The position numbers and the translations under genes were made by a program. From contig CAVXHP010000006.1 in assembly GCA_963761725.1 (NCBI GenBank), positions 253,534 through 317,533 on the forward strand: a stretch of 64,000 nt of DNA, given 5' to 3'. The notes under the pieces were generated by a model that saw nothing but the letters and a program-made list of their open reading frames with translations, did not search any database and was not told the origin of the DNA. This document shows, in pieces, positions 24,180-41,081 of the stretch. The DNA is from an uncultured Cytophagales bacterium (lineage in GTDB: Bacteria > Bacteroidota > Bacteroidia > Cytophagales > Bernardetiaceae). The first letter of the stretch is position 1. Every line of letters starts with the position of its first letter.

Positions 24180-24273
24180 GATATTGTTACTTATTAGATT
24201 TAATGAATTTTAGCTACAGAGATTACATTGCTCTGCAACTAAAATTCTGAAAATAATTTAATTAATAATCATA

Positions 24274-24810: not shown

Positions 24811-24869
24811 ATAAATTTATTAATGTTTGTGTTCTGCAAACAACATTCCCAACATTTTTCTAAAATCAC

Positions 24870-24900
24870 AATCTCATAATTATTATTTTATCAAAATAAA
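24870..24900 (+). repeat. attL core (31-bp direct repeat)
   Basis: Identical to 40069-40099. Confidence 0.8.
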
Positions 24901-25036
24901 CAATCTATTGTTTTTTTACTTTTTATGTATAATATGAAAACGCCCCTCAGATATAAATAAGGCACTTTTTAGTCAAAAGAGTTGAATAAGTCAAAGTAGA
25001 ACATAGTGATTTTTTTTACACTATATTTACACCAAG

Positions 25037-26266
25037 ATGTCTTCTATCAAAACTATTTTGTACACACAGAAAAAACTAGCAGACGGACAGTCGCCAGTTA
25101 TGCTTTACGTTTATGAAGAAAAACCTTATCGTCTTTCACTAGGTTACAGAGCTTTTCCGAAAGACTGGGATAATAAGAAAGGGAGGTTTAATAAAAGCCA
25201 TCCTAATGCAAAAGCTAAAAACCTTGAATTACGTAAAAAGGAACTACTTGCTCACGAGCTTGTAGATGATTTTGTCAGAAAAGGAGAACGATTTGATTTC
25301 CCTACTTTCAAAAAAGTATTTAGAGGAGAAAAAGAAGAAAAACAGGAAGAGAAAAAAGAAGTTAATTTTTATGACTTTGTTGAAGAGCTAATTTCTGCTA
25401 AGAAAAAACTTGGAAAAATATCTACTTCAAGAGGTTACAAAGATGTTTACAATATCTTAAAGCGTTACCATCCAAAGCCATTAAAGTTTGAGGATATAAA
25501 CTATTCCTTTCTGAAAAAAATAGAAGCTGAACTATTTGCAATAGGGTCTAAAAAAGGAACTGTCTTTACTCGTATGGCTATACTAAGAGCTATGTATTAT
25601 GAAGGTATTAGATGCAATCACATTTCAAAAGATAAAAACCCCTTTAATAATTCCTTTAAAAAAGACGGATATAATTTTTCAAAATTTAAGTCAGATTTAA
25701 GACCTAGAGCTTTAGATAAAGAAGAGTTAGATAGGTTCAGAAATTTTGATATTAAGAAATATCCAGAGCTATCCTTAGCTTGGTATTATTTTATGTTTTC
25801 TTTCAAGTTGTTTGGGATTAATTTCACAGATATAGCAAAGCTAACAGACGATAATATTAAAGGCACACGTTTGGAGTATGTAAGACAAAAAACAGGTAAA
25901 TCCTTTAGTTTGCTACTAACAAAAGAAACACAAGATATTATAAAAAATTTTAGTTCTGAATCAGATTATCTCTTTCCAGTTCTCAAAAAAGAGAAGCATA
26001 ACACTATTGTAAAAATAAAAAACAAAATAGGTAATACTCAAAAGCAAATCAACGACGATTTGAGACAAATTGCACTAATCCAAGGCATTAGTAAATATAT
26101 CACGTTTTATACAGCTAGACATACTGCTGCAATGGCTTTAAAACGCAAGGGAATAAGCACAGATATTATTTCAGAAGCGTTAGGACACAGCGACTTAGCA
26201 GTTACACAACATTATTTGTCTAAGTTTGATAACAATGTTTTAGATAGTGCTATAATGGACTTGTAG
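25037..26266 (+). CDS. int: Tyrosine-type site-specific integrase
   Basis: C-terminal catalytic region TARHTAAMALKRKGISTDIISEALGHSDLAVTQHYL (R..H..R..Y pattern). The N-terminal arm-type/SAM-like region is typical of Bacteroidota integrases. Confidence 0.9.
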   Translation: MSSIKTILYTQKKLADGQSPVMLYVYEEKPYRLSLGYRAFPKDWDNKKGRFNKSHPNAKAKNLELRKKELLAHELVDDFVRKGERFDFPTFKKVFRGEKEEKQEEKKEVNFYDFVEELISAKKKLGKISTSRGYKDVYNILKRYHPKPLKFEDINYSFLKKIEAELFAIGSKKGTVFTRMAILRAMYYEGIRCNHISKDKNPFNNSFKKDGYNFSKFKSDLRPRALDKEELDRFRNFDIKKYPELSLAWYYFMFSFKLFGINFTDIAKLTDDNIKGTRLEYVRQKTGKSFSLLLTKETQDIIKNFSSESDYLFPVLKKEKHNTIVKIKNKIGNTQKQINDDLRQIALIQGISKYITFYTARHTAAMALKRKGISTDIISEALGHSDLAVTQHYLSKFDNNVLDSAIMDL

Positions 26267-26353
26267 CACTTATTCGGATTCAAATCACTTGAAATATCCA
26301 TTTCTATTTACATACTCTTGAAAATAAATTTTCAAACAAAAATGTAACACAAA

Positions 26354-26668
26354 ATGGATATTTCAAAATTTGGCTGGACACGAAAAGAACAAGAAGTAAA
26401 AACAGGAGATTATCATTTTTCTGGTCGTATTCTTATGACAGCTACTGTTCAAGAGCATTTAGAACAAGAGGTAATACAAGCTATTGTATTTGATGCCTTG
26501 AAATTTGCAAAAGAACAAAACGGAATAGACTATTTATTAGTCTATCTAAATGCAGAAACAGGCGAAAAGCTATTTTTCATTGATGAATCTACTAAGGCTG
26601 AATTACAGTCTGGTCAAAAGCCACAAGAGTATAATTATGCTACTCTTATGTTTGCAGAAGATTACTAA
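26354..26668 (+). CDS. Hypothetical protein (104 aa)
   Basis: Clean ATG..TAA ORF followed by a terminator hairpin. No recognisable motif. Confidence 0.5.
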   Translation: MDISKFGWTRKEQEVKTGDYHFSGRILMTATVQEHLEQEVIQAIVFDALKFAKEQNGIDYLLVYLNAETGEKLFFIDESTKAELQSGQKPQEYNYATLMFAEDY

Positions 26669-26675
26669 AAAAACA

Positions 26676-26705
26676 AAAAGCAAGAACAGATTTGTTCTTG
26701 CTTTT
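26676..26705. terminator. Bidirectional hairpin terminator
   Basis: AAAAGCAAGAAC agattt GTTCTTGCTTTT, located between convergent genes. Confidence 0.65.
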
Positions 26706-26727
26706 CTTTTATAAAGAATATTATCTT

Positions 26728-27081
26728 TTATAAGATTCTGGTTCCATCTTCTACTTTAAAAGAAGGCTCTAACAATACAGTTCCTTCTTTTTTACATATA
26801 GCAGCCAATACTAAAACCTCAGATTTCACACCAGCAATCCTTTTTGAAGGGAAATTAATTACAGCAATGATTTGTTTGTTCATTAGGTCTTCAATAGTGT
26901 AATTTTCTGTTATTTGTGCAGAACTATTTTTTACCCCTAACTTTCCAAAGTCAATTTCTAATTTATAAGCTGGTTTACGAGCCTTTGGATTTAGTTCTAC
27001 TGATATTATAGTTCCAGTAAACATTCCAACTTTTAAGAAATCATCAAACTGGATTTCTTGTAAATTTTCTATATTTTGCAT
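26728..27081 (-). CDS. csaA: CsaA/Trbp111-like tRNA-binding (EMAP/OB-fold) domain protein
   Basis: FLKVGMFTGTIISVELNPKARKPAYKLEIDFG...SSAQIT...LMNKQIIAVINFPSKRIAGVKSEVLVLA. ATG at 27081. Confidence 0.75.
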   Translation of the reverse strand: MQNIENLQEIQFDDFLKVGMFTGTIISVELNPKARKPAYKLEIDFGKLGVKNSSAQITENYTIEDLMNKQIIAVINFPSKRIAGVKSEVLVLAAICKKEGTVLLEPSFKVEDGTRIL

Positions 27082-27165
27082 TGATTTCAAAGGTTAAATT
27101 AAATGTTTTAAACAAAAACTCCCCACTACTGACTATCAGTATAGTGAGGAGGATTACTATTTTAA

Positions 27166-28074
27166 CTAATCAAAACCATTAACCAAGCTAAATTCTAAAG
27201 GAATTTCCAAATGCTCCTCTAAAGAATCAAACTTGAAAGAAGGGTGTTTTTCGCTTTTTGGTCTTCTCGTGAAGAAAAGAATCATATCTCGCCACGCTTC
27301 TAAGTTTTCGTCGTGTGGATTCAATGCAGATACTGAATGTTTCAATTCGCTATCTACAATAATAAGGGTATCTAAAAAATGCCAATGTTGGCACTTACCT
27401 ATAACAAATCTAGGGTCTGTTTTATCCCAAGATACGCCTATTTGTTGCTTTTCATTATGTACTTCTGATATTGCAGAGTTCTTTTTCATATTACTAGAAC
27501 GAATAAACGTAGTCATAGTATGCTCTACTCCATCGCTATGAACCCCCTCTTTTGCAGGTTCTCCAATATGGTCTTTATTAGTGATAGTACGAAGCTGAAA
27601 AACTGTTGATACCCAACACATTACATCTTTTTGCAAGTTTGAACGAAGTTTTACATCCACGCTGCTAATAATGATAGCCTTAAATTTCATTAGAGCTTGA
27701 AATGCAGTGTTACATTGTAAATTATCTTGAATCCCTCTAAAATGACGCAACATACCTGCATCATCTCTGACAAAATCTTCATCCTCAGAAAGAACAAAAG
27801 GTTGAAATTTTAGTCTAGAAACTTTCTCTTCTTGTAGGTTAATAAGAAAACGACCATTACGAGACTTTCTAAACGGAAGAGTTGGGTCTTCTCCCAAATC
27901 TTGGTTAGCATATTGAAGATTAGACAAATCTTCCTCACTTGCACCTAAAAAGCGTAGGATAGTTTCAATCTTCCATCCTTGAATAAAAACAAATCTGTTT
28001 TTTTCATAATTTTCCTTAATCTCCATTAGGTATTTCCCAACAGGAGTTACTTTTGACATCAAATTTGTACTCAT
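27166..28074 (-). CDS. 2OG-Fe dioxygenase family protein (PF10014-like, the isoleucine-hydroxylase IDO family)
   Basis: EGVHSDGVEH (HxD) ...IRSSNM... then D..LKHSV (distal His) and WRDMILFFTRR. Resemblance to the PF10014 consensus is judged from memory. Confidence 0.6.
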   Translation of the reverse strand: MSTNLMSKVTPVGKYLMEIKENYEKNRFVFIQGWKIETILRFLGASEEDLSNLQYANQDLGEDPTLPFRKSRNGRFLINLQEEKVSRLKFQPFVLSEDEDFVRDDAGMLRHFRGIQDNLQCNTAFQALMKFKAIIISSVDVKLRSNLQKDVMCWVSTVFQLRTITNKDHIGEPAKEGVHSDGVEHTMTTFIRSSNMKKNSAISEVHNEKQQIGVSWDKTDPRFVIGKCQHWHFLDTLIIVDSELKHSVSALNPHDENLEAWRDMILFFTRRPKSEKHPSFKFDSLEEHLEIPLEFSLVNGFD

Positions 28075-28427
28075 AGTATTAGTTATTTTGTTTGAGTATA
28101 AAATAATATTGCGTTTGACTGTCTAATCATTAAAAAAGGTCTAGGTAGTCTTTAAGTTATTTTGTACTACCCAGTGTCGTAAATGTATCCTATTTACGGC
28201 ACTTTTTTTATGTGAAAAAGATAACAAACAACAATGCATCACAAACGTTAGTAATGTTATCATAAATATAAGTTATATTTTTTATTTAGGCAAATTATTT
28301 GATATAATAACTAACAAAAATCACGAATTTTTTTTTCGCAATAGTTTCTACATAAAATATATATTGCTATTATAGCTTACAATTTTGTAGTTTTGCAAAA
28401 AATCACAGCACTAAAACATAATTTATA

Positions 28428-29546
28428 GTGAGAAATAATACAACAAACGTTAGGAATATCTTATCTCTTTGGTTAGGTGTATTCCTTAGTAGGATGAGAC
28501 AACAAAGGAGTATTTCAGCTAATGACCTTAGTACGACAATGAAATTTTCTACTCCTTATTTACGTATGGTGGAAAATGGTCTTACCAACATAGCCCCAGC
28601 AAGAGCATTAGATGTATTGATAGGTTTTACAGACTTATTCAGTTTGAATGGTTACTTGTCATCACTTAGTAATTACTTAGTTGCTGTACAGTATCTATCA
28701 ACTTATGATGACGTAAAAAGCACAAAAGCTGCATTACAAGATTTGAAAGATGCAGATAAAGGTTTAGAAAAATTACTTTCAAATATTAATGATATACATT
28801 GGAAATATTTGGAAGAACAAGATTATGATGAACTAAAGAATAGTTTTGGAAAAAAGCCATTTGTTGAAGAGTTAGAAAAATATTTGACTAATCCATATTA
28901 TGCCCTTAATCAAGTAGATGGAATTGCTCAAAATTGGGCAGACTTATATGGTAAAACACCTTCACTATTTCAAGATTTTCTATATAGAAGATACAATTCA
29001 ATAAAAAACGACATAGAAGACTTAATCTCATACTCTCAATATTATAGCTTATCAGATTGGGAAGATAATAATGAAAAAATGATAGTAAAGTGTTTGGGGA
29101 TTACAAGAAGTATAGACCACTTACTATTAGATTCAGATAAGTTTAAGTGGAGCTTTTTGAAAAATAAAAGTTTTAAAAGTCTGAAATGTATAATATTTGA
29201 GCCGTACAATTCCCTTAAGGAAGATAAACTATTCAGTATAATTTCAGAACAATGCCAAATACCTATTGACAAAGCAAGACAACTTATTAATTTGGTTACA
29301 CTTCCCTCGGATGAGGTAGAGTATATTTGTAATCACTTACCAAGGTATACAAAAAGTTTAAATATAGATTACTGGCTTTATGAATTAAAGAACACAAATA
29401 AAATAGGTTTCTGTATTACTTTTCAAGATAGTTTACCTATAGAACTTAGTAAGCAATATTTAAACTATACTCTATATGATACTTCAGAGATTTTGAGTAA
29501 TGATGAAATACGAGAAATATTTACGATAATAAATCAATATTTATGA
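28428..29546 (+). CDS. XRE-type HTH domain protein with large uncharacterised C-terminal domain
   Basis: N-terminus LSRMRQQRSISANDLSTTMKFSTPYLRMVENGLTNIAPARALDVL resembles an HTH_3 domain. GTG start. The stop overlaps the next start (ATGA). Confidence 0.55.
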   Translation: MRNNTTNVRNILSLWLGVFLSRMRQQRSISANDLSTTMKFSTPYLRMVENGLTNIAPARALDVLIGFTDLFSLNGYLSSLSNYLVAVQYLSTYDDVKSTKAALQDLKDADKGLEKLLSNINDIHWKYLEEQDYDELKNSFGKKPFVEELEKYLTNPYYALNQVDGIAQNWADLYGKTPSLFQDFLYRRYNSIKNDIEDLISYSQYYSLSDWEDNNEKMIVKCLGITRSIDHLLLDSDKFKWSFLKNKSFKSLKCIIFEPYNSLKEDKLFSIISEQCQIPIDKARQLINLVTLPSDEVEYICNHLPRYTKSLNIDYWLYELKNTNKIGFCITFQDSLPIELSKQYLNYTLYDTSEILSNDEIREIFTIINQYL

Positions 29547-30355
29547 AAGCCAAAATATTATTAGAAACTACTGAGAGTAGTATGCATCTAATAGCTAAAG
29601 AGTTTGGAACTCCAATCTTTGTTAGAAAAAATAAAATACTTAATCTCATATCTGATGTTGTCAGAGTAAAAGCAAACTTATTATACCAAGAAATTGAACT
29701 AAATGGAAATTTCCATTGTGATAATCTTACAGTTGAGAAAGTAAAAGTGTATGGTCTACTTGGCAAAACTAGTAATAGCATAAAAACTAATCTTTTACTA
29801 ACAAAAGACATAAAATTATATACTACATTGCCAGTATTGTCAGTCGGTAATAAGGTAATTATCTCATTTTCTAATTTACAGTTTACATCTAAGAATCAAA
29901 GAGTACTAGACCTTGATGATATACCTAAAGATAAATCTAGCCTTATTAATTTCTGTAAAGTATGTAGAGATAACTGTTGTGTATTAGGTAAAGTAAATGT
30001 AACAGAAGAGGAGTATAGAAAAATTTATGAATATACAGGACGAGGAGATTACTTTTTACGCAATGAAGATGGTGTTAGGCAAATTGACAATGAAAAGGGT
30101 AAATATTGTCGTTTTTTTGATAAAGAAAAAAAACTTTGCTCAATTCAACATATCAAACCAATTGAATGTAAAAGTTACCCAGTTTATTTTGGAGAGAAAG
30201 GTTCAATAAAAAATTTTTCAATCTATACTGGATGTCCTGCAAAAAGCTTTTTGACTGAAAAATATGTTTTACAGGCAAAAAAAGAGCTAGAGAAAATACC
30301 TAAGCAAGACAGAGAAAAATATTATGAGATTACTAAAAAACTGGGACAACTATGA
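29543..30355 (+). CDS. YkgJ-family (CxxCxxxCC) Cys-cluster protein with novel N-terminal domain
   Basis: CKVCRDNCC...EEEYRKI...YCRFFDKEKKLCSIQHIKPIECKSYP. Translationally coupled on both sides. Confidence 0.6.
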   Translation: MKAKILLETTESSMHLIAKEFGTPIFVRKNKILNLISDVVRVKANLLYQEIELNGNFHCDNLTVEKVKVYGLLGKTSNSIKTNLLLTKDIKLYTTLPVLSVGNKVIISFSNLQFTSKNQRVLDLDDIPKDKSSLINFCKVCRDNCCVLGKVNVTEEEYRKIYEYTGRGDYFLRNEDGVRQIDNEKGKYCRFFDKEKKLCSIQHIKPIECKSYPVYFGEKGSIKNFSIYTGCPAKSFLTEKYVLQAKKELEKIPKQDREKYYEITKKLGQL

Positions 30356-31443
30356 TATTAGAACTATCAAATATAACAAAGCGTTTTCCTAAGACATTGG
30401 CAGTAGATAATATTTCTCTACAAGTTCAGGCTAATGACCACTTTTTCATTTTAGGCTCTAGTGGATGTGGAAAGAGTACGCTTTTAAATATGATAGCAGG
30501 TTTTATTAAACCTGATAAAGGAATTATAAAATTAGATGGAAATATAATAAATGAAATTTTACCTAATAAACGCCCTATTCATACTGTTTTTCAAGATTAT
30601 GCTCTTTTTCCTCATTTAAATGTATTTGAAAATATAGCATTTAGTTTAAAAGTTCAAAAAGTAAATAAGAGTAATATAAAACATAGAGTGGGAGAGATGC
30701 TAGAACTAGTTAAATTAAGTGGCTTTGAACTCCGTAGAGTTAATGACCTTAGTGGAGGAGAAAAACAAAGAATTGCATTAGCTAGAGCTTTAATAAATCG
30801 TCCTTTAATACTACTCTTAGATGAACCACTTTCTGCTTTAGATTCTAAATTGAAGCGTGAAATGATTGTAGATTTACAAAAAATCAAAAGAGATATTAAT
30901 TGTACATTCATTCACGTAACTCACGACCAATCAGAAGCTCTAAGTTTAGGGGATAAAATTGCAATAATGAGTAAGGGTAAAGTAATACAAGTAGATTCTC
31001 CTATGAACATTTATCAAAAACCTACTACTCATTTTACAGCTTCTTTTATGGGGAAAATAAATACTTTTGAAATAAATAATATATTTAATCGTAGTAATAG
31101 TATTTATATAGGGAAAGCCAAAGATGGTAGTTTATTTTCTTTTGTCTCTGATAAAAAGATTGAAAAAACTGTTTTACTTGGTATTAGACCAGAAAATATT
31201 ATTGTTAGCAAAATAAAAAATAAATCTTTGTTACCTGATTTCTCCTTAGAGAAAAATAAATTGATAGGAAAAATACTATTACAATCCTTTCAAGGTAGTG
31301 ATATTGAATATACATTATTAACATCAATAGGAGAGTTTATAGTGCGAGTTCCTTTAAGTAAAGTAGCAGATTTTAAAACTGAGGAAGAGCTTTTACTTGA
31401 GTGGGAGACTGAATCTTCAATAGTTCTAAATAAAAATGTATAA
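30352..31443 (+). CDS. potA: ABC transporter ATP-binding protein, PotA-like (polyamine-type importer)
   Basis: Walker A GSSGCGKST, signature LSGGEKQRIALARAL, Walker B LLLDEPLSALD, and a C-terminal TOBE-like region. Confidence 0.85.
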   Translation: MILELSNITKRFPKTLAVDNISLQVQANDHFFILGSSGCGKSTLLNMIAGFIKPDKGIIKLDGNIINEILPNKRPIHTVFQDYALFPHLNVFENIAFSLKVQKVNKSNIKHRVGEMLELVKLSGFELRRVNDLSGGEKQRIALARALINRPLILLLDEPLSALDSKLKREMIVDLQKIKRDINCTFIHVTHDQSEALSLGDKIAIMSKGKVIQVDSPMNIYQKPTTHFTASFMGKINTFEINNIFNRSNSIYIGKAKDGSLFSFVSDKKIEKTVLLGIRPENIIVSKIKNKSLLPDFSLEKNKLIGKILLQSFQGSDIEYTLLTSIGEFIVRVPLSKVADFKTEEELLLEWETESSIVLNKNV

Positions 31444-32279
31444 TGAAAAAAATAAAAGTAAGTTGGATAAATAAAATACTGATATTTCCTTCTGGACTTT
31501 GGATAACAGCATTTTTTTTGATGCCCTTTTTTGTAGTTTTTATTTATACGTTTTTTAGTAGGGGTATTTATGGTAACATTGAGTACAACATCAATATAAA
31601 TAATTATTATAGAGCTTTTGAGTTTGTGTATGCTACATCTTTTTTTCGTTCATTAATATATGCTATACTCACTAGTTTAATAACTTTATTAATTGGATAT
31701 CCTGTTGCATATTGCATAGTTAAAATTTCAAATTTAAAGGTTAAAAGACTACTATTATTTCTTATAATACTTCCTTTTTGGTCAAATTATATTGCGAGAA
31801 TATATGCTTGGGCTATGCTACTGAGTGATAAAGGAATAGTATATCAATTACTATTTGAGTTAAATTTGATAGAAGAAAATCTAAGTATCTTATACTCATC
31901 AAACGCAGTTTATATTGGTCTAATTCATAATTATCTACCTTTTATGATACTATCAATATATGTCGCATTAGAAAACATAGATAAAAGGATATTAAATGCT
32001 TCCTATGATTTAGGTGCATCATTTAGTTACTCATTTATGAGAATTATACTACCCTTGTCTTATAGTGGAATTAGAAATGGATGTATAATGGTATTTAGTT
32101 TTGCAATAGCTGACTACGTAATACCTAACATACTTGGAGGTTCTAAAAAACTTCTAATAAGCAATGTAATTTCTAACCAGTTTATTACAACTAGAGATAT
32201 TCCTTTCGGTGCTACTTTAACAGTCTTATTCACTATTTTAGTATTTGCAATGATATATTACTTATATAAAAAAAATTAA
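31443..32279 (+). CDS. potB: ABC transporter permease, PotB-like
   Basis: Six TM helices with an EAA-like loop (NASYDLGAS...MRIILPLS). Confidence 0.8.
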   Translation: MKKIKVSWINKILIFPSGLWITAFFLMPFFVVFIYTFFSRGIYGNIEYNININNYYRAFEFVYATSFFRSLIYAILTSLITLLIGYPVAYCIVKISNLKVKRLLLFLIILPFWSNYIARIYAWAMLLSDKGIVYQLLFELNLIEENLSILYSSNAVYIGLIHNYLPFMILSIYVALENIDKRILNASYDLGASFSYSFMRIILPLSYSGIRNGCIMVFSFAIADYVIPNILGGSKKLLISNVISNQFITTRDIPFGATLTVLFTILVFAMIYYLYKKN

Positions 32280-32281
32280 AA

Positions 32282-33061
32282 ATGTTTGTAATGAATAAAA
32301 CCTTATCTATATATACATTCCTAATAATAAGTTTCTTATACATTCCTATAATTATACTAGCTATATATTCATTCAGTTCTGACCCCTATTCTATTTCTTT
32401 AAATAGTTTTTCTTTAGATGCATACATAGATTTATATAATGATAGAAGTTTTATATCAGCAATATGGAATAGTGTCATCGTAGCAATAATAGCATCTACA
32501 TTAGCTATAACTATTACAATTCCATTAGTTTATATTTTACACAAAAAGAAAAATATTATAGCGATAACAATAAAGAGTGTGTCCAAGTGGATTTTAATAG
32601 TGCCAGATATAAGTGTTGCTATTGGCATAATGATTTTATTTAAAGCTCTCAACTTCAATAGAGGTTTAGAAACAATTATTATTTCTCATACTACATTTTC
32701 TATAGCATATACAATACTAATAATTGAACCACATATTGAAAGTATTGTACCAAAATTAACAAATGCTGCGATGGATTTAGGTGCAACCGAAATACAAGTT
32801 ATTACAAGTATAATCATACCCTTGATAACTCCCAATTTAATAGTTGCTTTTTGTATTAATTTTACGTTATCTTGGGACGACTTTATTTTTTCTTTTTTCA
32901 ATTCAAGTGCAGGAAATTCTACTCTTTCTGTTTATATTTACACTCTTATAAAAAAAGGTGCTAATCCATCAATCAATGCTATATCTATCATATCTATGAT
33001 TGTATCATTGATTTTTATTACTATTAGCATAAAATTTCAAAGAATTTTGAACAAAATTTAA
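32282..33061 (+). CDS. potC: ABC transporter permease, PotC-like
   Basis: Six TM helices with an EAA-like loop (NAAMDLGATEIQVITSIIIPLITP). Confidence 0.8.
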   Translation: MFVMNKTLSIYTFLIISFLYIPIIILAIYSFSSDPYSISLNSFSLDAYIDLYNDRSFISAIWNSVIVAIIASTLAITITIPLVYILHKKKNIIAITIKSVSKWILIVPDISVAIGIMILFKALNFNRGLETIIISHTTFSIAYTILIIEPHIESIVPKLTNAAMDLGATEIQVITSIIIPLITPNLIVAFCINFTLSWDDFIFSFFNSSAGNSTLSVYIYTLIKKGANPSINAISIISMIVSLIFITISIKFQRILNKI

Positions 33062-33066
33062 CAATT

Positions 33067-34111
33067 ATGTTGAAGCATATAAAACATAGCCTATTTATAA
33101 CCATACTTTTCATTTTTGGAGGTTGTTCTTTTCGACAACAACAATAATAAAGAAAAAACAGACGAATTCATAAACGTCTATAATTGGACATATGTTATTC
33201 CTTCTGAGGTAATTACAGATTTTGAAAAAACATATCATGTGAAAGTAAATTATGATAATTACTCTTCTAATGAAGAATTATTAGCTAAAATACAAAGCCC
33301 ATCACATAATTACGATTTAATTTTTCCTAGTGATTATATGGTGCAAATAATGATAAAACAAGATTTATTAGCACCATTGAATTACAGTAATATTCCTAAT
33401 TCAGAAAATATTTCAGACGATTTTAAAGGCTTATTTTTTGACCCTAAAGATAAATATAGCATACCTTTTGAATGGTCTACAGCAGGTATTAGTGTCAATA
33501 CTAATAAAGTTCAGAATTACAATAAGTCGTGGGATATACTATTTGATGAAAAGTTTAAGAATGATGTAACAGTGTTAGATGACATGAGGTATGGTATTTT
33601 ACCAGCTATATTTAAGCTAGGTTACAATCCAAACACAAAGGAAGAAGACGAGATTAATAAAGCAAAAGAATTGATGTTTAAACAAAAAGAATTTGTTAAA
33701 GCATATAGTAGTGATACTTATATTGATATGCTAAAAAAAGAAGAAGTTGCTATTGCTTATGGTTGGAGTATAGACTTATTAAAAATCCAAAAGGAAAAAC
33801 CACACATTCGTTATTTTATTCCCAAAGAAGGTTCTACAAAAATTATAGAATTGATGTGTATTCCAAAAGAATCTAAAAGAAAAGGTTTAGCAGAAAAGTT
33901 TATTAATTACATACTAATTCCAGAGATTCACGCTAAAATCTCTAACTATTCAATGGCAACAAACCCTAATGAGAAGGCAAAACCTTTTATAAACGAAAAT
34001 TATAGAAGTATTAGTGATAGCGTTGATATGGACAAGCTCTTTTTTCTGAAAGATGTTGGAGACGCAACTATATTTTATGATAATGCTTGGAATGATATAA
34101 AAAATAAGTAA
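33067..34111 (+). pseudogene. potD: PotD-like periplasmic/lipoprotein solute-binding protein; signal peptide out of frame with the mature domain (+1)
   Basis: ATG at 33067 encodes MLKHIKHSLFITILFIFGGCSF, a lipoprotein signal, and then stops at 33145. The mature domain (track ORF 33116-34111: NVYNWTYVIP...) is in the next frame. Deleting one T of the T4 run at 33129-33132 fuses them as ...GGCSFDNNNNKEK. Confidence 0.75.
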
Positions 34112-34146
34112 TGTGATTAAAATTAGTTTTAACTTTTTTAATCAAA

Positions 34147-34737
34147 ATGAACCTACTCCCCCACCAAATAGCCCAAAAGTTATGAGTTTCCGAAAGGACA
34201 ATCTATAATTATAGAAAAAAAATAAAAGGTAAATTCAAAGAAGAGCTAAGAAACGGCATGACTTACCTAGAGTTTGTACCATTTTTAGAGTATGCAAAAT
34301 CACTTGGCAATACCTTTCCGAAAGATTCAGAAATATTTCCGAATATTCAGAAAGAGGCACAAAATGATTCAGAAAAAGTGAAAGAAAACAAGATAGAAAA
34401 GCCAAATTGAAATTTCTGAAATATTTCGGAAAGGGTTGCAGAAGTTTCCGAAAGCAAGGAAAATACCCAAAACCGAAATAAAAAGAAAAAACAGCTAGAA
34501 AATTATAGCAATAATCTAAATGAACAAGTTCAAAAATATGCACTTGCATTTAATGAAGAAAAAGCAGAGAGAAAAGAATTACAAAAAAAATACGATACTT
34601 TAGAAACTAGATTTTTGGATAAGGTAGAAGAAGTAGCTCGTTTTAAATGAAAAACAGCTTTATTCTTTGCACTTTTGGGAGGACTTGCTTTTGCTCTTAC
34701 ACTAATTTTAGTTTACCTACTCTTTCTCAAAACCTAA
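34147..34737 (+). pseudogene. HTH DNA-binding protein with coiled coil and C-terminal TM helix; open only if 4 in-frame TGA are read as sense
   Basis: ATG at 34147 and TAA at 34735. In-frame TGA at 34183, 34408, 34417 and 34648. Reads ...HQIAQKL[TGA]VSERTIYNYRKKI...; with Gly this gives the canonical LGVSxxTIY helix-turn-helix. The C-terminus ALFFALLGGLAFALTLILVYLLFL is a TM helix. Confidence 0.6.
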
Positions 34738-34740
34738 AGA

Positions 34741-35034
34741 AAAACAACGTTGTCTTTTTTTATTTTACTATTTTATATATTTTACGCAGCTTAAAGACCA
34801 GTTCAGACCTAGTGTTTCAGACTTAAAGATGGAATAAGATAGGTCTAAATAAGAGTATTATGGGGTAAAATATGAATAAATTAGGGTTTAAGATGGAATA
34901 AGATAGGTTCTATATATGAGAAAAATGAGGTTGTTGAAAAAATAAGTATGGAAATAAAAGTTTTCCACTCATATTTTAGCTTGTATTTATGTAAATTTTC
35001 CTTAGATTTTTAGTGTTTAGCTTATCTTACTGCA
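34741..35034 (+). other. Putative iteron-type replication origin upstream of rep
   Basis: 19-bp iteron AAGATGGAATAAGATAGGT at 34826-34844 and 34890-34908, 64 bp apart, with similar flanks. AT-rich stretch at 34754-34785. The 12-mer CCAGTTCAGACC at 34798-34809 is repeated inside rep at 35728-35739. Confidence 0.6.
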
Positions 35035-36231
35035 ATGGAAAAAGCCACACAACAGTTAGTAGTAAAGCATAATTATCTGATTAATGCCAAATATGATTTT
35101 TCTCTTTTAGAAATGAAGGTATTTTTGTTAGCCGTTTCTAAAATACAGCCACAAGATAAAACAACTACCAAGTATAGAATTTATGTAAAAGATTTTAAGC
35201 AACTTGTAAACACACAATCTAAGCAGGAATATAAAAGAGTGAAAGCAACCGTTAAAAGTCTAATGAAAAAGATTGTAGAAATACCAAGAGGAGAAGATAA
35301 ATCTGTTTTGATGTGTCAATTATTTTGACCTTCTGTTTACCACGACGGAGAAGGCTATGTAGAAATTCAGTTTTATGAAGAAATAAGAGCTTATTTATTA
35401 GAACTCAAAGAGAGATTTACACAGTATAACCTTCACAATATTGTCAGAATAAAATCCTTTTCCAGTATTAGAATCTATGAATTACTCAAACAGTACGAAA
35501 CGATAGGAAAAAGAACTTTTGAACTTACAGAGCTAAAAAGTATTCTAAAGGTAGAGAAAAAGTATAAATCATACGCTGATTTTAAAAGGTATATTTTAAA
35601 GAGAGCGCAGAAAGAAGTTTGAGCCTATTGTGATATTTCATTTACCTTTAAAGAAATCAAAAAGGGTAGGAGAGTAAATAAATTAGTGTTTTACATCCAA
35701 AGGAAGGAAAAAAAAGATACTCAAAACCCAGTTCAGACCGTCGTAGAAAATGATTTAAGTGCAAAATTTTTGCTTACCCCTAGACAAGTCCGTGAAGTGC
35801 TAAAAAAATATGAGAATGATTTGCTTCATTTAGAGAAAATTCTTTGAGAAATAGCTAAGAAATATAAAACAGGAGAAATAGAAAAATTAGGAGCTTATAC
35901 TTTCAAAACTTTAATAGAAGGAAAACACGAAAAAAGTCTTTTTGATGAAGAAGTCCAAATAGAAAAAGACAAAAAGCAACAGAAGAAAGCAGCAAAGATA
36001 GAAGAACAAAAACAGAGTGAAAAAGATAAACAGAAAACACAAGAAGAAAAAGAGCAGCTAATCACTCAGATAGAAAAAGCACTTTCAGAAGATGAAAAAA
36101 ATAGTTTGGAAGAGGAATTTAAAACTCATATTTCAAAACCTCATTTGCAACAACTAAGCGAACGCCCACGAGGAAAGAAGATATTACGACAAAATTTTTT
36201 GGCTAAAAAGTTCCTATCCGAAGACGATTAA
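35035..36231 (+). pseudogene. rep: Rep_3-type plasmid replication initiator; open only if 3 in-frame TGA are read as sense
   Basis: Reads QQLVVKHNYLINAKYDFSLLEMKVFLLAVSKI ... YHDGEGYVEIQF ... IRIYELLKQYETIGKRTFELTELKSIL...YADFKRYILKRAQKEV... The single frame is open for 398 codons. In-frame TGA at 35326, 35620 and 35845; terminates with TAA at 36229. Confidence 0.75.
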
Positions 36232-36254
36232 ATTTTATTTTCAACTTTGTTTGA

Positions 36255-36689
36255 ATGGAAAAGACAAAAGCAGATTTTGATTTGCGAAACAAGCAGAAAC
36301 AAAAAATAGAAAAAAGTGATGATTCTATACTTTCAGTTCGTGAATGACAACTTTGGCGATATTATGAGTGAATGAATGTAGGTAACGAACAATCAAAATG
36401 AAGAGAATGAAATTTTAGAAGAGTAGGTTTGATTCTAAACAAAAAAGTAGGTCGTTGAATGGTTCTTATTCTACCTATCACAACAAAATACAAAGAAGAA
36501 CATAGGGTTTACAAACTTCTCATTAAGAACCCTACTCAATACGGACTTTCAAATCCAAGTGCATTTATCTTAAATCGTTTCAACGTTATTTCTACAAAAA
36601 GATTAATTAAGGAAAAATCTGATTCTGTTTTACACTCTAATTTTTTGCAACTTTTGAAGAGGAAAATAATTAGCACTATTCACGAATAA
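36255..36689 (+). pseudogene. MazF/PemK-like toxin; open only if 5 in-frame TGA are read as sense
   Basis: ATG at 36255 and TAA at 36687. In-frame TGA at 36345, 36369, 36399, 36408 and 36456. Reads SVRE[TGA]QLWRYYE[TGA]MNVGNEQSK[TGA]RE[TGA]NFRRVGLIL...LILPITTK...FNVISTKRL. It aligns without gaps to Kid/PemK ERGEIWLVSLDPTAGHEQ (recalled from memory), placing the first TGA on the conserved Gly. Confidence 0.65.
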
Positions 36690-36879
36690 AGAAATACATC
36701 ATTATTTATTTTTCTCTAATATTAAATTAGCAACTTTTTAGATTATTTGAACTTAATTACCATTTCTAAGATGGAATGTTGCATAGGGTGGATAGTTATA
36801 AGAATATTTTGTAGAAATAATGTTATATTTGATTAGAGTTAGTGTTAACAAATTTACTTACAAATAACGTGCATTATAA

Positions 36880-38241
36880 ATGATTATAGTTAGACCTAGG
36901 TTGAATGATTATCATAACATTCCATTCACACAAGAAGAAGTAGATTTTGCAATTCCTTATTTGAATGAAGATATACCTTTATATGTTGATCCATTTTTAT
37001 TGTGGAAATCTCCATCACTTCAAGATAATTCTTTGCATACAGTTATCATCAACTCATTTAATCATCTTGGTCATTTAGTTAATACAAATAAAGAAGACAA
37101 AGCTATTGATATTCTGGTACAAACAAGTGAATGTAATGAAGTTGGAATGGGTAATTCAAAAACAAGAATAGGAAAACCAATAGGACATAAAACAGCTAAA
37201 GAAATATTGAATTTATTTATAAATATTCCTCAGTTAAAAAGCTCTGGTTTCGTCCATTTTGAAAGTATTCAACTACTTGTTAATGGTATTTCAAAGGATA
37301 GAATTAGTGATTTTACTACTAGCTTTATTAAATCTTTTCTAATAGATTATACAATAGAACAATGTGAAAAATATCACATACCTATTCATTCTGTAAAAAT
37401 AGAATCACTTTATAGTTACAAAGAAAATTCTATAATTTCAGAGAACGTTTATTTACCTACGAATCCTGAAAATAACTCTCCTATTTTGTTTGTTCCAAAA
37501 AGATGGTTAAGATTCATTCCTTGGATAAATTTTGATGACTACTATAAAACCTTTCAATTAAAAGATACACAACAACAAAAAGATAGAATTCCATTATTGA
37601 ATTACAATAGACAGAATTTCGATGCTGTTATGGCTTATGTAAAAATTAAGGAAAGTGAAAGAAAATTATGTAAAAATGACTTGATATTTAAGCCTATTTC
37701 AAAGACTTCTGTTACTAGAAAGGTAAATACAATTATTAAACTAGATACAGGCAAGACAAATAATGCTGATATTGAATTTGAAAAAAATATTTGTTCTGTA
37801 CTTCCTACGACATTCTTTCCATATTTGGATTTTGCTGAAGCACAAAGTAGAACTGTAGATGGAGTACATATAAGAGATTTAATATTTTATAATAATCGTT
37901 CTCACTCTTTCCTTGAGGAAATATATGAACAGTATGAATGTAAACAGATTATTTTTGAACTAAAGAATGTTAAGGAGCTAAGTAATGAACACGTAAATCA
38001 ACTGAATAGATACTTAAAAGAGCAATTTGGTAAATTTGGTGTTTTAGTAACGAGAAGCCCTCCATCTAAGAAAGTCCTGAAAAACATAATAAATTTATGG
38101 TCAGGTCAGCGAAAATGTATTTTAGTTCTTACAGATGAAGACATGAAATTAATAGGCAGTCTTTATCAAGGAAATCAAAGACCAGCCATTGATATTTTAA
38201 AGAAAAAATATGTAGAGTTTACAAGAGATTGTCCATCCTAA
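36880..38241 (+). CDS. Uncharacterised 453-aa protein with C-terminal Mrr/PD-(D/E)xK-like nuclease signature
   Basis: C-terminus reads VDGVHIRDLIFYNN...(about 25 aa)...IIFELKNVKELSNEHVNQLNRYLKEQFGKFGVLVTRSPPS, a D...ExK pattern followed by a Q..Y and G.lvT pattern like restriction-endonuclease (Mrr_cat) domains. The N-terminal 300 aa has no recognisable family. Confidence 0.55.
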   Translation: MIIVRPRLNDYHNIPFTQEEVDFAIPYLNEDIPLYVDPFLLWKSPSLQDNSLHTVIINSFNHLGHLVNTNKEDKAIDILVQTSECNEVGMGNSKTRIGKPIGHKTAKEILNLFINIPQLKSSGFVHFESIQLLVNGISKDRISDFTTSFIKSFLIDYTIEQCEKYHIPIHSVKIESLYSYKENSIISENVYLPTNPENNSPILFVPKRWLRFIPWINFDDYYKTFQLKDTQQQKDRIPLLNYNRQNFDAVMAYVKIKESERKLCKNDLIFKPISKTSVTRKVNTIIKLDTGKTNNADIEFEKNICSVLPTTFFPYLDFAEAQSRTVDGVHIRDLIFYNNRSHSFLEEIYEQYECKQIIFELKNVKELSNEHVNQLNRYLKEQFGKFGVLVTRSPPSKKVLKNIINLWSGQRKCILVLTDEDMKLIGSLYQGNQRPAIDILKKKYVEFTRDCPS

Positions 38242-38253
38242 ATTTTAAACTAG

Positions 38254-38649
38254 ATGAATGAAGAGCAAATTAACAATTTTGAGAAATGTCAGACACAAAT
38301 TGAAGGATTATTATCTGAGATAGGTTTATTATCTAAGAAAAATCCTAATGATGCAGTAAATAAATTCAAACTTATTTTTATTAATGAATTAATTACGAAT
38401 GCTAACATAATTCTGACTTCTGACTATATGCCTTTCAAATCGTTCAATGATTTTGATGTAGATTCTGTCCCCTCTAATAGTGATGTTACTTTCATCCTAT
38501 CACAATATCTAAATTGTTTTGAGAAACTAAGAGCAGATAATATATACTGTAAGTCTGAATACATAGGAGGTAAATACCATAATAATTGGTATTGGAGAAC
38601 AGGTAATAAAAAATTAATAGCTACTTCACAACCAAACAAAATAAAATGA
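38254..38649 (+). CDS. Small hypothetical protein, paralogue A (131 aa)
   Basis: Shares P..(D/E)..NKFK...IN...(V/L)PSNSD....I.QY......R with the next ORF. Its stop overlaps the next start (ATGA). Confidence 0.6.
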   Translation: MNEEQINNFEKCQTQIEGLLSEIGLLSKKNPNDAVNKFKLIFINELITNANIILTSDYMPFKSFNDFDVDSVPSNSDVTFILSQYLNCFEKLRADNIYCKSEYIGGKYHNNWYWRTGNKKLIATSQPNKIK

Positions 38650-39062
38650 AAAATAACAAAAAAAATGAAAAAGATTTATTTCCTTCTCAAGAAGAAGTAG
38701 ATAAATTCAAAATGTTAGAAGGTTTAATTGAATCTATTACTTTAGAAATGAAGGAATTTGCTAAGAAGAAGCCTGATGAAACATTGAATAAGTTTAAGAC
38801 TAATACAATAAATAATATTCTAAAAGACTTGAAAGAAATCATGAGAAAGGAAGCTACCAATGATTATCTTGTTTTATTAGATAAAGATGTTTTACCATCT
38901 AATAGTGATGCTGTGATTGTCATAGGACAATATAACTCAGCAATATCTCAATTTAGAGCAAAATATAATGGTAAAACAGACGAATATTCGTTACAACGTT
39001 GGTTCACACAAGAAAATCCAGGAACTCATTATAAGCAAAGAGGTTTATTAGATGGGTTGTAA
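38646..39062 (+). CDS. Small hypothetical protein, paralogue B (138 aa)
   Basis: Paralogous to 38254-38649 (KKKPDETLNKFKTNTINN...LPSNSDAVIVIGQYNSAISQFRAKY). Translationally coupled to it. Confidence 0.6.
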   Translation: MKNNKKNEKDLFPSQEEVDKFKMLEGLIESITLEMKEFAKKKPDETLNKFKTNTINNILKDLKEIMRKEATNDYLVLLDKDVLPSNSDAVIVIGQYNSAISQFRAKYNGKTDEYSLQRWFTQENPGTHYKQRGLLDGL

Positions 39063-39172
39063 GTTTTATTTTAGTTAAAAATTATAAGCTACATCTATTA
39101 ATTTAGTGGTAGCTTTTTTTATATAAGTAACCATATTGTTAGCAAATAAAAAACATTTAATTTATTATAATT

Positions 39173-39235
39173 GAATCTCCTTCTGTTTTACACTCTAATT
39201 TTTTGCAACTTCTCAAAAGGAAAAATTTCATTTAA
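39173..39235 (+). pseudogene. Orphan 3'-end fragment of a second MazF-like toxin allele
   Basis: Encodes ESPSVLHSNFLQLLKRKNFI*, compared with KSDSVLHSNFLQLLKRKIISTIHE* at 36615-36689. A 31-bp identical core occurs at 36623-36653 and 39181-39211. It is followed by synonymous differences (TTG AAG versus CTC AAA). Confidence 0.75.
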
Positions 39236-39242
39236 AAAAATC

Positions 39243-39280
39243 GCCTACTCACACTAAGGAGAGTAGGAAGCTGGAGACTC
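39243..39280. repeat. 38-bp hairpin-containing direct repeat, copy A
   Basis: GCCTACTCACACTAAGGAGAGTAGGA-agc-TGGAGACTC, preceded by an A-run. CCTACTC/GAGTAGG forms a hairpin. On the minus strand this is a hairpin followed by a T-run, which is terminator-like. Confidence 0.7.
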
Positions 39281-39442
39281 AAATTAAGGTCTCTATGGCA
39301 TTTGCTTTTAAGCTAATGCCTATGAAAATAGCTTATTGATTTTTAAAGAAAGATCAAGTTTTTATTATTTCTACTTATTTACAACTTAATGCTCTAATTG
39401 TCGTACTCATATAGAAGATTTTTTTAATTAAACCTTACTATT

Positions 39443-39778
39443 ATGTCAATAAGAAATGTATTAAGCATAAACTATAGCTTTACACAAGAACAAGAAGAAA
39501 TGATTAATTCTGAAATTCATAAACACGCTAAAGAAAATGCAGGTTTTCTAAGTAAATACTCTGTTGAGTTTAAGTCTGTTAAAATCACTGGGAATAAAAA
39601 TGGAGATTTTATTACTCTTAAAGGGAGTGGTACTGTACAAGGGCATATCACAAAAAGTAGTAATTCTAATTATACCCAAGAGGGTGTAGAGGAAAAAACA
39701 GCATACTTTAATTTTGATGTTTCCATAGATGAAGAAGATGAAATAGTGGTTGAATCTAATAGCACAACTTATATCTAA
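39443..39778 (+). CDS. Hypothetical protein (111 aa)
   Basis: ATG..TAA ORF followed by a strong hairpin. No recognisable motif. Confidence 0.5.
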   Translation: MSIRNVLSINYSFTQEQEEMINSEIHKHAKENAGFLSKYSVEFKSVKITGNKNGDFITLKGSGTVQGHITKSSNSNYTQEGVEEKTAYFNFDVSIDEEDEIVVESNSTTYI

Positions 39779-39794
39779 ATATGTTCTTTTTACT

Positions 39795-39837
39795 AAAAAT
39801 AGCCATTCATAATCAAAAATTATGAGTGGCTATTTTT
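39795..39837. terminator. Hairpin terminator
   Basis: AAAAATAGCCATTCATAAT caaaa ATTATGAGTGGCTATTTTT. Confidence 0.7.
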
Positions 39838-39987
39838 CATTTTATAGGCATTGAAAGTATTAATGATTTATTTCATTTTTCAATTCAGAAAAGAAGTTGA
39901 ATTTATTTTGTCTTTTGGTTTTTTGCCTTTCGGTTCGCTCGTGGAAAAAGAAGAAAAGGAATAGCGAAATGTTGTTTAAAAAAAATT

Positions 39988-40025
39988 GCCTACTCACACT
40001 AAGGAGAGTAGGATGTTGGAGACTC
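39988..40025. repeat. 38-bp hairpin-containing direct repeat, copy B
   Basis: GCCTACTCACACTAAGGAGAGTAGGA-tgt-TGGAGACTC, preceded by an A-run. It matches 39243-39280 at 35 of 38 positions. Confidence 0.7.
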
Positions 40026-40068
40026 TGCCTTTGTTAGTATTCCCACCAACGATATTTTCAATATTTCT

Positions 40069-40099
40069 AATCTCATAATTATTATTTTATCAAAATAAA
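40069..40099 (+). repeat. attR core (31-bp direct repeat)
   Basis: Identical to 24870-24900. It lies 57 bp upstream of the sucD ATG. Confidence 0.8.
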
Positions 40100-40155
40100 A
40101 GGTATTTTTGTCTATATCATTTTTTACATTCACAAAAAATAACTATAACGAAACT

Positions 40156-41050: not shown

Positions 41051-41081
41051 AATTACGAATTACGAATTAAAAATTACGAAT
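41051..41081. repeat. Heptamer ATTACGA repeat (left arm)
   Basis: Sequence aattacgaattacgaattaaaaattacgaat. Its inverted partner is at 41172-41200. Confidence 0.8.

Follow-up and report, generated by a model that had tools for sequence, protein, structure and literature searches.

A 15.2-kb island lies directly upstream of sucD in a stretch of 64,000 nucleotides (nt) from an uncultured Cytophagales bacterium (GenBank assembly GCA_963761725.1, contig CAVXHP010000006.1, positions 253,534 to 317,533 of the forward strand), which is analysed here as a whole under the name of the window, its first letter being position 1 of the coordinates given below. The host is Bernardetia (Cytophagales), a marine gliding bacterium. 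The island is bordered by two copies of a 31-bp direct repeat, and between them it carries a tyrosine integrase gene (int), a small gene named orf104, a module with a plasmid-type replication initiator and a toxin pair, three slots of cargo genes, and a right end that resembles the sequence found in front of sucD in other genomes (Table 1). The module, whose genes are interrupted by in-frame TGA codons, is the novel part of this arrangement; the island itself is of a known type, inserted by an integrase at a non-tRNA site.

The repeat, AATCTCATAATTATTATTTTATCAAAATAAA, is exact over its whole length in both copies, attL and attR, which stand 15,199 bp apart from start to start. These are the only two copies in the window, even when up to 3 mismatches are tolerated, no third att copy was found within 4 mismatches, and no match arose in any of 100 dinucleotide-preserving shuffles, the chance expectation being none. 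The int start codon lies 136 nt inside attL, and on the other side 56 nt separate attR from the ATG of sucD (40156-41043, ATG at 40156); this stretch of 56 bp between core and ATG is kept in all Bernardetia loci, and it contains a box, TATTTTTG (40103-40110), that matches TAnnTTTG and stands 4 bp from the att core described below. ARAGORN found no tRNA or tmRNA gene in the whole 64-kb window. An earlier note, made from the letters of this DNA, had already claimed the perfect repeat, the integrase just inside its left copy, the position of the right copy just before sucD, the TAnnTTTG-like box outside attR and the lack of a tRNA gene at the junctions, and all of these were borne out.

When four attB (empty chromosomal site), three attL and two attR sequences were aligned, a 22-bp core, ATTATTATTTTATCAAAATAAA, was found to be common to all att sites; it forms the right-hand portion of the attL 31-mer (24879-24900), is the same in the attB, attL and attR of six genomes, and has one mismatch in the empty site L096. 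It holds an inverted repeat, TTATTTT-ATC-AAAATAA (7-3-7), of the kind that is bound by tyrosine recombinases, and strand exchange must take place within these 22 bp; we take the inverted repeat, as judged from its form, to be a pair of core-type binding sites around a crossover whose exact position we infer. On the right the core has a sharp boundary, at the same base in three genomes, beyond which the sequence reads either AGGTATTTTTGTC (chromosome, toward sucD) or YAATCTATTGTTTTTTTAC (island, toward int), and on the left its flank is alike in every aligned att site. The earlier note had also reported an imperfect similarity to the left of both copies, which in the window alone amounts to little (the stretches of 45 nt that end with each copy share 87% identity, 31 of these nt being the exact repeat itself) and which is nevertheless real, because the island's right end is homologous to the native sucD-upstream sequence of other genomes. 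More precisely, the left flank at attR, which is the island's right end, has its homologs in what precedes the core at the empty sites L094 and L096 and in the sequence to the left of attL in Bernardetia sp. OM2101; CAACGATATTTTCAATA(T/A)TTCT stands to the left of the core in L096, in the OM2101 attL and in the window's attR, and ACATTTTTAATAATTCT in Bernardetia litoralis. A tandem accretion, in which an older island would have left its right end beside attL and so given rise to the similarity there, was considered and dropped, since in native empty sites the core is preceded by that very sequence.

Within the left arm (the P arm, from core to int), a box, TTTTTTTTACACTATATTTACACC (25010-25033), stands directly before the int ATG and is kept in the relatives L084, L085 and L088, whose integrases are about 50% identical to that of the island; it may be the int promoter or an arm-site region. 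The right arm contains a hairpin element (GCCTACTCACACTAAGGAGAGTAGG) at 39960-40025, with a duplicate at 39215-39280. Arm-type sites were sought as well, and the sole motif common to both arms, AGTTGAAT, was judged unconvincing; an Rfam scan of the island gave no credible match.

Further loci for comparison were gathered by exact-protein look-ups and by a pattern scan. The site is empty in B. litoralis DSM 6794 (L094), where def, 138 bp and sucD follow each other with a single copy of the core, and L095 is listed with it; L112 and L113 are also empty and read outer-membrane protein (OMP) gene, def, one 31/31 copy of the repeat and then sucD, and L134 is an additional empty site. The earlier note had expected the empty site to read lipoprotein gene, one att copy and sucD: the single att copy before sucD is there, and the lipoprotein gene is nowhere to be seen with it, the order being def, att, sucD. 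This lipoprotein gene (178 amino acids (aa), 24274-24810) is in fact absent from every other locus compared, and the interval between def and attL (window 24199-24869; L093 7700-9833) is variable by itself: the lipoprotein gene occupies it here and AraC and SDR genes occupy it in OM2101, whereas it is void of genes in B. litoralis, L112 and contig_2059; no att remnant was found at the left edge of this interval.

The island is present, with differences, in two further genomes. In OM2101 (L093), a cultured isolate with the complete genome CP170094.1, whose protein WP_375562709.1 belongs to the same cluster at 90% identity as our integrase, the order is def, the AraC and SDR genes, attL, int, orf104, other cargo (thyA, AAA_28 and Ham1 genes in place of those in slot 1), the same Rep region, and a CBASS operon; this island, which was compared without its right end, has an integrase of 95% aa identity and a Rep region of 94-95% nt identity to those of the window. 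In contig_2059 (L097) the island measures 9.3 kb between an attL and attR that share a 29-bp repeat, has the same Rep region and a CBASS operon, and ends on the right in a sequence 97.9% identical to the window's, with int internally deleted and reduced to its first 96 codons. The def-sucD site is a defined hotspot of cargo turnover, including the defence system CBASS and, in the window, the candidate system PDC-M36. A genome-contig scan anchored on SucD gave, among the matches listed, proteins that were at best only 76-86% identical, none from Bernardetia, and no empty site; one weak look-alike of the core with 4 mismatches, in L034, was the sole one among these matches.

The contig contig_18619 (L002), from a metagenome that also contains a near-identical copy of the window, has flanks 98-99% identical to those of the window and lacks window positions 24199-40074. 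Several other mobile sequences were observed around the site in these strains. A family resembling miniature inverted-repeat transposable elements (MITEs), with terminal inverted repeats AATTACGAATTACGAATTAAAAATTACG / CGTAATTTTTAATTCGTAATTCGTAATT, occurs at 16600-16810 and 41051-41200 of the window and at 7285-7374 of L002; one copy lies directly downstream of sucD, and a truncated one abuts the att core in contig_18619. The insertion sequence content also differs between the two near-identical strains (window 22195-23088; L002 8572-9605), with a DDE_Tnp_1 element between the OMP gene and def in the window strain only, and a DDE_3 element downstream of sucD in contig_18619 only.

The integrase has the three domains of its class, all above the curated Pfam cutoffs (Arm-DNA-bind_5, E = 1.4e-13; Phage_int_SAM_5, E = 2.2e-11; Phage_integrase, E = 5.9e-16), and its frame has no in-frame stop and terminates in TAG. 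Its catalytic set looks intact, because R283, R361, H384 and Y393, to which the catalytic roles were assigned by motif position, are invariant in an alignment with 19 homologs, and the usual HxxR motif is YxAR throughout this integrase clade. About 35 proteins are 45-56% identical to it, and among five loci of such relatives that were retrieved there are three distinct elements (L084, L085-L087 and L088-L090, at 48-56% identity) in which the 3' part of a tRNA, antisense to int, lies about 110 nt upstream of int. These fragments, with the anticodons GTT, TGT and CAT (Asn, Thr, Met), occupy the position that is held in the window by the AT-rich core; ARAGORN found no complete tRNA at these junctions, and the Rfam tRNA model matches the fragment of one relative over anticodon arm, T arm and acceptor strand (24.5 bits, E = 0.0035). 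The sequence from core to int, including TTTTTTTTACACTATATTTACACC, is kept between these tRNA-associated relatives and the window. Since integrase and P arm are orthologous and the core alone is different, the lineage of the island has switched its target from tRNA genes to the sucD promoter region. This also agrees with the remark of the earlier note that the absence of a tRNA is less usual, as the closest relatives of the integrase do adjoin tRNA 3' fragments. Two of the tRNA-associated relatives carry Rep_3 genes, and L085 carries a TrwB/TraG-like (T4 coupling protein-like) gene. Beyond these, the viral collection IMG/VR, scanned with the core and with the integrase and Rep alignments, gave distant relatives only (integrase 37% identity at best). 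As a separate observation, the integrase of L084 (ERZ25039505 contig_16976, 9900-21212) is a paralog of 52% identity from the same metagenome, which adjoins its tRNA-Thr fragment and stands at the front of a defence island; GmrSD-like genes, a caspase-like peptidase and a type I restriction-modification system are found there.

The replication and toxin module is a different matter. Its four open reading frames (ORFs), with 736 codons in all, contain 11 in-frame TGA codons and not a single TAA or TAG, while int, orf104 and all the cargo genes have no in-frame TGA, TAA or TAG in 3641 codons. All 11 TGA codons are kept in the three islands (window, L093 and L097), those of the toxin pair lying at 36345, 36399, 36408 and 36456. 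The host code is standard and TGA is a stop codon in it: def ends in TGA in the window and in TAA at the same codon in B. litoralis, and some of the cargo genes themselves end in TGA, which in one case overlaps a start codon as ATGA. Since the 40 long ORFs of the window end in TAA 24 times, in TGA 9 times and in TAG 7 times, nonsense mutations arising at random would not be confined to TGA.

The reading frame of the initiator gives the clearest view of this module. Its TGA codons are numbers 98, 196 and 271, and in the standard code the product would stop after 97 aa; across the 398 codons there is no frameshift, the frame aligns as a single frame with the Rep of L091 over 212 aa (40% identity), and full-length Rep homologs of about 400 aa exist. 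With TGA read through, the conceptual product covers Rep3_N from 2 to 141 of 141 positions (136 bits) and Rep3_C from 2 to 59 of 59 (59 bits), and it is complete only in this way. In codons 99-398, all of them beyond the first TGA, the synonymous and non-synonymous differences between islands are 38/12, 31/10 and 37/16, which gives ratios of non-synonymous to synonymous change (pN/pS) of 0.07-0.10, against 1.2-2.7 in the other two frames. The gene with the helix-turn-helix (HTH) and the transmembrane (TM) helix has a pN/pS of 0.17-0.22 (other frames 0.5-1.75), and the antitoxin-like ORF and toxin together 0.16-0.25; non-coding frames of the module are mostly at about 1 or above (0.3-4). The toxin likewise passes the PemK_toxin cutoff (23.1 bits) as the read-through product only, which scores 27.2 bits and spans profile positions 13-105 of 109; the standard-code fragment of 76 aa stays at 17.8 bits. 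The two 19-bp repeats upstream of rep change jointly, their central 4 nt being TAAG in the window and ACTT in OM2101, as would be expected of functioning iterons that co-evolve with their initiator, and they are candidates for such.

The same interruption is seen beyond these three islands, in at least two further lineages of the family: in L085 and L087 the rep frame has 6-7 TGA codons and the coupling-protein-like frame 2, and in L091 the rep frame has 5. The closest Rep homolog of all, P0243 (53% identity), was called with TGA as Trp; its contigs L222-L224 derive from three samples, and on L222 none of the complete genes called is free of TGA. These contigs share with the window one TGA position in Rep and two in the HTH gene, at 41-53% protein identity. 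The Rep_3 genes of Cytophagales plasmids, including a Bernardetia plasmid, are uninterrupted. As for the amino acid inserted, at three sites TGA is aligned with Gly or stands at the usual Gly position of an HTH (KL-u-VSERT, RN-u/G-KTY, EKL-u/G-AY, with u for TGA), GGN and TGA together make up 3.9% of the backbone codons, compared with 4.0% Gly in the other island genes, and TGG is depleted in the backbone ORFs (1 in 736 codons). The nucleotide after TGA is T in 1 of 24 island TGA codons, against a background of 0.21, and in 8 of 25 on the L222 contigs, a difference that is suggestive at most. A chromosomal homogentisate-dioxygenase (hgmA)-like gene at 4354-5541 on the minus strand, which also contains a TGA (4969-4971), was considered as part of the same recoding and rejected, given that B. 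litoralis has Arg (CGT) at this codon and the change is probably a nonsense mutation or an assembly error.

Table 1. Features of the island and of its insertion site, with positions in the window.
Feature	Position	Strand	Remarks
attL	24870..24900	+	left copy of the 31-bp repeat; exact repeat
Left arm (P arm), core to int	24901..25036	+	97.8-98.5% identical in L093 and L097
Tyrosine integrase, 409 aa	25037..26266	+	Pfam; PHROG integrase match
orf104	26354..26668	+	conserved backbone gene following int; L093 and L097 have it at 94-95% aa identity
Cargo slot 1 (7.4 kb)	26719..34145	.	Pfam and NCBIfam
CsaA-like tRNA-binding protein, slot 1	26728-27090	-	Pfam/NCBIfam
2OG-Fe dioxygenase, slot 1	27166-28074	-	Pfam/NCBIfam
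HTH protein, slot 1	28428-29546		Pfam/NCBIfam
CxxCxxCC protein, slot 1	29543-30355		Pfam/NCBIfam
PotABCD-like (polyamine-type) ABC transporter, slot 1	30352-34111		Pfam/NCBIfam
HTH / coiled-coil / C-terminal TM-helix gene, 196 codons	34147..34737	+	4 in-frame TGA (34183, 34408, 34417, 34648); ends in TAA
Two 19-bp direct repeats AAGATGGAATAAGATAGGT, candidate iterons	34826-34844, 34890-34908	+	upstream of rep, 64 bp apart
Rep_3 initiator, one 398-codon frame	35035..36231	+	3 in-frame TGA (35326, 35620, 35845); ends in TAA
Antitoxin-like ORF (36255-36371) and PemK/MazF-like toxin (36372-36689)	36255..36689	+	1 TGA and 3 TGA, respectively
Cargo slot 2, candidate defence system PDC-M36	36668..39173	+	PADLOC
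Cargo slot 3, 111-aa ORF (39443-39778)	39351..39786	+	no family match
Right arm	39787..40068	+	97.9% identical in L097; last ~60 bp copy native sucD-upstream sequence
attR	40069..40099	+	right copy of the 31-bp repeat; exact repeat
Target gene region	40100..41043	+	TAnnTTTG-type box and sucD (Pfam)

By comparison with L093 and L097, the island consists of a shared backbone, made up of 24879-26718 (left arm, int and orf104), 34146-36667 (HTH/TM gene, repeats, Rep and toxin pair), 39174-39350 and 39787-40068 (right end), and of cargo that fills the slots between. Slot 2 strongly matches PDC-M36, a candidate defence system of PADLOC, whose A and B genes are adjacent in it: gene A (36880-38241) matches PDC-M36A over its full length (E = 1.2e-220), and the next two ORFs, B (38254-38649) and B' (38646-39062), match PDC-M36B (3.3e-50 and 1e-36). 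This slot is absent from L093 and L097 and is flanked by 51-bp direct repeats (36616-36666 and 39174-39224), which suggests that the cassette was inserted by recombination at a duplicated segment. At the place of slot 3, OM2101 and contig_2059 have a CBASS operon (Cap15 and SMODS). The view of the earlier note that the island is a mosaic of metabolic cargo, a replicon and defence-like cassettes stands as to its content, with PDC-M36 as the candidate defence part; the replicon has no simple truncated Rep gene, but a full-length Rep_3 frame that only conserved TGA codons interrupt. The backbone gene orf104 has 129 homologous cluster representatives of about 100 aa and is modelled by AlphaFold2 with a pLDDT of 96.7 and no significant match to a solved fold, and 5 of 50 of its homologs have weak DUF960 matches; with no solved fold and these weak matches only, it was not recognisable as an excisionase, the role for which it had been considered. 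Phage structural genes were not found in the island, where the PHROG matches are the integrase and a weak HTH only, and a whole-island megablast against the plasmids of PLSDB gave no match.

Two observations concern the chromosome farther downstream. A toxin-antitoxin-like DUF3368/UPF0175 pair at 42980-43745 (minus strand) lies between a VWA gene and gldD and is absent from that place in B. litoralis. The gene for histidyl-tRNA synthetase is divided between two ORFs that lie in different frames (48452-49165 and 49188-49841), as it is in contig_18619; long-read assembly may have introduced a frameshift, or the gene may truly be split, which would be odd for an essential gene.

We propose that the island's own tyrosine integrase, of the Bacteroidota type, recombined the attP of the element with the chromosomal attB, and that this left the two 31-bp repeats. 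The attB overlaps the promoter of sucD and lies 4 bp ahead of the TAnnTTTG box, and attP carries a look-alike of the sequence upstream of sucD, so that insertion rebuilds that sequence next to sucD, much as tRNA-targeting islands bring along a replacement for the tRNA 3' end; the promoter region is rebuilt because the right end of the island copies the native sucD-upstream sequence. The attP junction of the excised element is predicted to read ...TTCTAATCTCATAATTATTATTTTATCAAAATAAACAATCTATTG... Promoter function would be preserved, and the element may still be mobile today. In all, we consider it very probable that the island is a Bernardetia-specific mobile element of 15.2 kb, inserted by its integrase at the sucD upstream region, with a backbone and cargo slots, and with TGA-containing genes under purifying selection.

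Several points weigh against this interpretation and should be kept in mind. No excised circle or attP junction was seen among the 46 matches of the core in the JGI metagenomes, the sole collection scanned, where the att sites were attB only, no excisionase was recognised in the island, and the Pfam matches of its ORFs include no relaxase, coupling protein or type IV secretion genes, nor was an oriT found. The contig_18619 site, empty as it is, has no clean attB and lacks the lipoprotein gene too; because a truncated MITE copy abuts its core, it is a rearranged site. With regard to age, the backbone is 91-98% identical in nucleotides to that of the sister islands, compared with 80-92% for the flanking genes, and a recent horizontal transfer had been inferred from this higher identity; that conclusion was weakened once pS was computed, which is 0.11-0.34 for the backbone, modestly lower than the 0.29-0.48 of the flanks (def, OMP, sucD and the sigma factor gene). 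A long vertical residence followed by losses is thus possible, and because the island pS is only modestly below that of the flanks, what we claim is gain and loss at a fixed site and not recent transfer. With respect to the TGA codons, ARAGORN found no tRNA gene, and hence no suppressor tRNA, in the window, L093, L097, L085, L091 or L222-L224, and, beside the three sites mentioned, others align with Ser/Ala, Ala, Glu, Asp or Arg instead of Gly.

Four other explanations were weighed. That the two 31-bp copies agree by chance or are a promoter motif dispersed through AT-rich DNA, with ordinary chromosome between them, has next to no probability: the AT content of the sequence is indeed very high, and unrelated AT-rich contigs of the metagenomes match the 22-bp core by chance, but the shuffles never reproduced the repeat, two copies remain in the window even at 3 mismatches, empty sites exist, and every match with Bernardetia-like flanks (3 of the 46 in the JGI scan) lies directly upstream of sucD, which disposes of the dispersed motif that the earlier note had named as a reason to doubt the att pair. 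It is unlikely, though less remote, that variants of the locus spread mainly by homologous recombination through the def and sucD flanks, the site being a hotspot and the repeat a relic. The variable def-attL interval speaks for such an exchange, as do the cargo slots that differ among islands with a common backbone, which implies recombination, and the mosaic int gene (97.6% identical over its first 288 nt, 91% overall); yet it would hardly account for exact repeats with a sharp right boundary at the same base in three genomes, for an intact integrase at the canonical distance from a core that stands where the relatives have their tRNA att site, or for empty sites that retain exactly one copy of the core. 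We give about the same small weight to a phage satellite or defective prophage in place of a plasmid-derived island. A size of 9-15 kb, an integrase and replication module free of structural genes, and defence genes in variable slots resemble P4-like satellites and phage-inducible chromosomal islands (PICIs), and a standard-code integrase beside stop-interrupted genes is the pattern reported for recoded prophages; against this, there are no capsid, terminase, packaging or lysis genes, PHROG recognises only the integrase and a weak HTH match, IMG/VR holds no close relative of the integrase or of Rep, a Rep_3 initiator with iterons is a replicon of the plasmid type, and the relative L085 carries the T4 coupling protein-like gene.

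The remaining alternative, a dead remnant of an integrated plasmid, with rep and toxin pseudogenes made by nonsense mutations, fossil att sites and a backbone that is not expressed, appears improbable to us. It would be in line with a Rep cut to 97 aa and a PemK cut to 76 aa by the standard code, with the lack of transfer genes, with the loss of most of int in the sister island of contig_2059, and with the circular form not being found. Nonetheless, 11 of 11 interruptions are TGA although TAA is the commonest stop in the genome, the 398 Rep codons are free of frameshifts, beyond the stops pN/pS is as low as 0.07-0.25, other frames being at about 1 or more, the L222 contigs retain some of the TGA positions even though their proteins are only 41-53% identical, and the two iteron-like repeats change jointly. 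Decay is therefore no explanation for a single type of stop without frameshift, at low pN/pS, in positions kept down to about 45% identity. We conclude from this pattern that the TGA-containing genes of the backbone must undergo translation through UGA in some setting, or did so until very recently.

Where and how UGA would be decoded may be conceived in three ways. A suppressor tRNA could possibly be supplied in trans in Bernardetia, for example by a TGA-recoded phage, which would make the module a sensor; or, also possibly, the element replicates in another host in which UGA is a sense codon, Bernardetia being its integration host. An inefficient natural read-through is hard to reconcile with the data, because there are 3-7 TGA codons per gene. 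A reading that we put forward tentatively, and which we regard as rather doubtful at present, is that the genetic code itself acts as a switch: int, orf104 and the cargo would be readable in the standard code, and Rep, the HTH/TM protein and the PemK-type toxin would stay locked by TGA until UGA is decoded. In a helper version, which is possible, the tRNA would come from a TGA-recoded helper phage or element, and the island would be a satellite-like sensor that replicates or kills the cell upon infection; in a host version, equally a possibility, UGA would be a sense codon of the host, and the three aligned sites would point to Gly, as in genetic code 25.

Among known systems, the island resembles in plan the IntDOT/NBU-type elements of Bacteroidota (CTnDOT, NBU1, NBU2, Tn4555), which have the same integrase build of an arm-binding, a SAM-like core-binding and a catalytic domain, and in which int adjoins one att site and short direct repeats flank the element, some members using non-tRNA targets. 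It differs from them in having no mobilisation or transfer genes, in its target, the sucD promoter region, in an attP with a look-alike of the sequence upstream of that target, in its plasmid-type Rep_3, and in the TGA-interrupted backbone. With its tRNA-targeting relatives (L084, L085-L087, L088-L090) the island shares a homologous integrase and left arm, a core at the same distance upstream of int, and a copy, carried by the element, of the displaced part of the target; in contrast to tRNA-targeting islands, its core is an AT-rich promoter segment, and what is restored is an upstream regulatory region and not a tRNA 3' end. The iteron Rep_3 plasmids of Cytophagales (Chondrinema litorale, Aureispira, Bernardetia sp. 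MNP-M8) have Rep_3 proteins of 35-38% identity, direct repeats upstream of rep and a toxin-antitoxin pair adjoining it, as in the island, but their rep is uninterrupted, whereas the replicon of the island is chromosomal and its rep needs TGA decoding. P4-like satellites, PICIs and defence islands also have a backbone with exchangeable defence slots, like the island with its PDC-M36 here and CBASS in its sisters, but no recognisable helper-related genes are found in the island.

The nearest parallel for the TGA codons is found in phages. Like the recoded prophages, the island is integrated in a standard-code host and has an integrase gene free of in-frame stops next to other genes with many in-frame TGA. 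Such prophages (Garnet and Topaz clades) reside in a standard-code host with a stop-free integrase and other genes with many in-frame copies of one stop, and it was proposed that the code separates two phases of their life cycle, own suppressor tRNAs being carried by them (Borges et al., 10.1101/2021.08.26.457843). The island departs from them in several respects: it has no structural or lysis genes, recoding affects its replication initiator, HTH/TM protein and toxin pair, the stop codon concerned is TGA, aligned with Gly at three sites, there is no suppressor tRNA on the island, and its cargo is in the standard code, with some genes ending in TGA.

A limited search of the literature found nothing on Bernardetia integrases, PDC-M36, or recoded plasmids or islands, and no description of a code lock in a plasmid-like or island element, which is no proof of novelty. 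In summary, the island offers a clear case, from nature, of an integrase lineage whose target changed from tRNA genes to the promoter of a housekeeping gene, and the mimicry of the displaced upstream sequence by attP bears on the origin of new integration specificities and on how damage to the target is avoided. Until now, descriptions of a life-cycle switch based on stop-codon recoding have concerned phages with their own suppressor tRNAs; here we find, in a non-phage integrative element of a standard-code host, 11 TGA codons under purifying selection in replication and toxin genes, without a suppressor tRNA of its own. If it is true that these genes are unlocked by a foreign tRNA or by a host with a different code, mobile elements would have a novel means of sensing their helpers or of crossing code boundaries.

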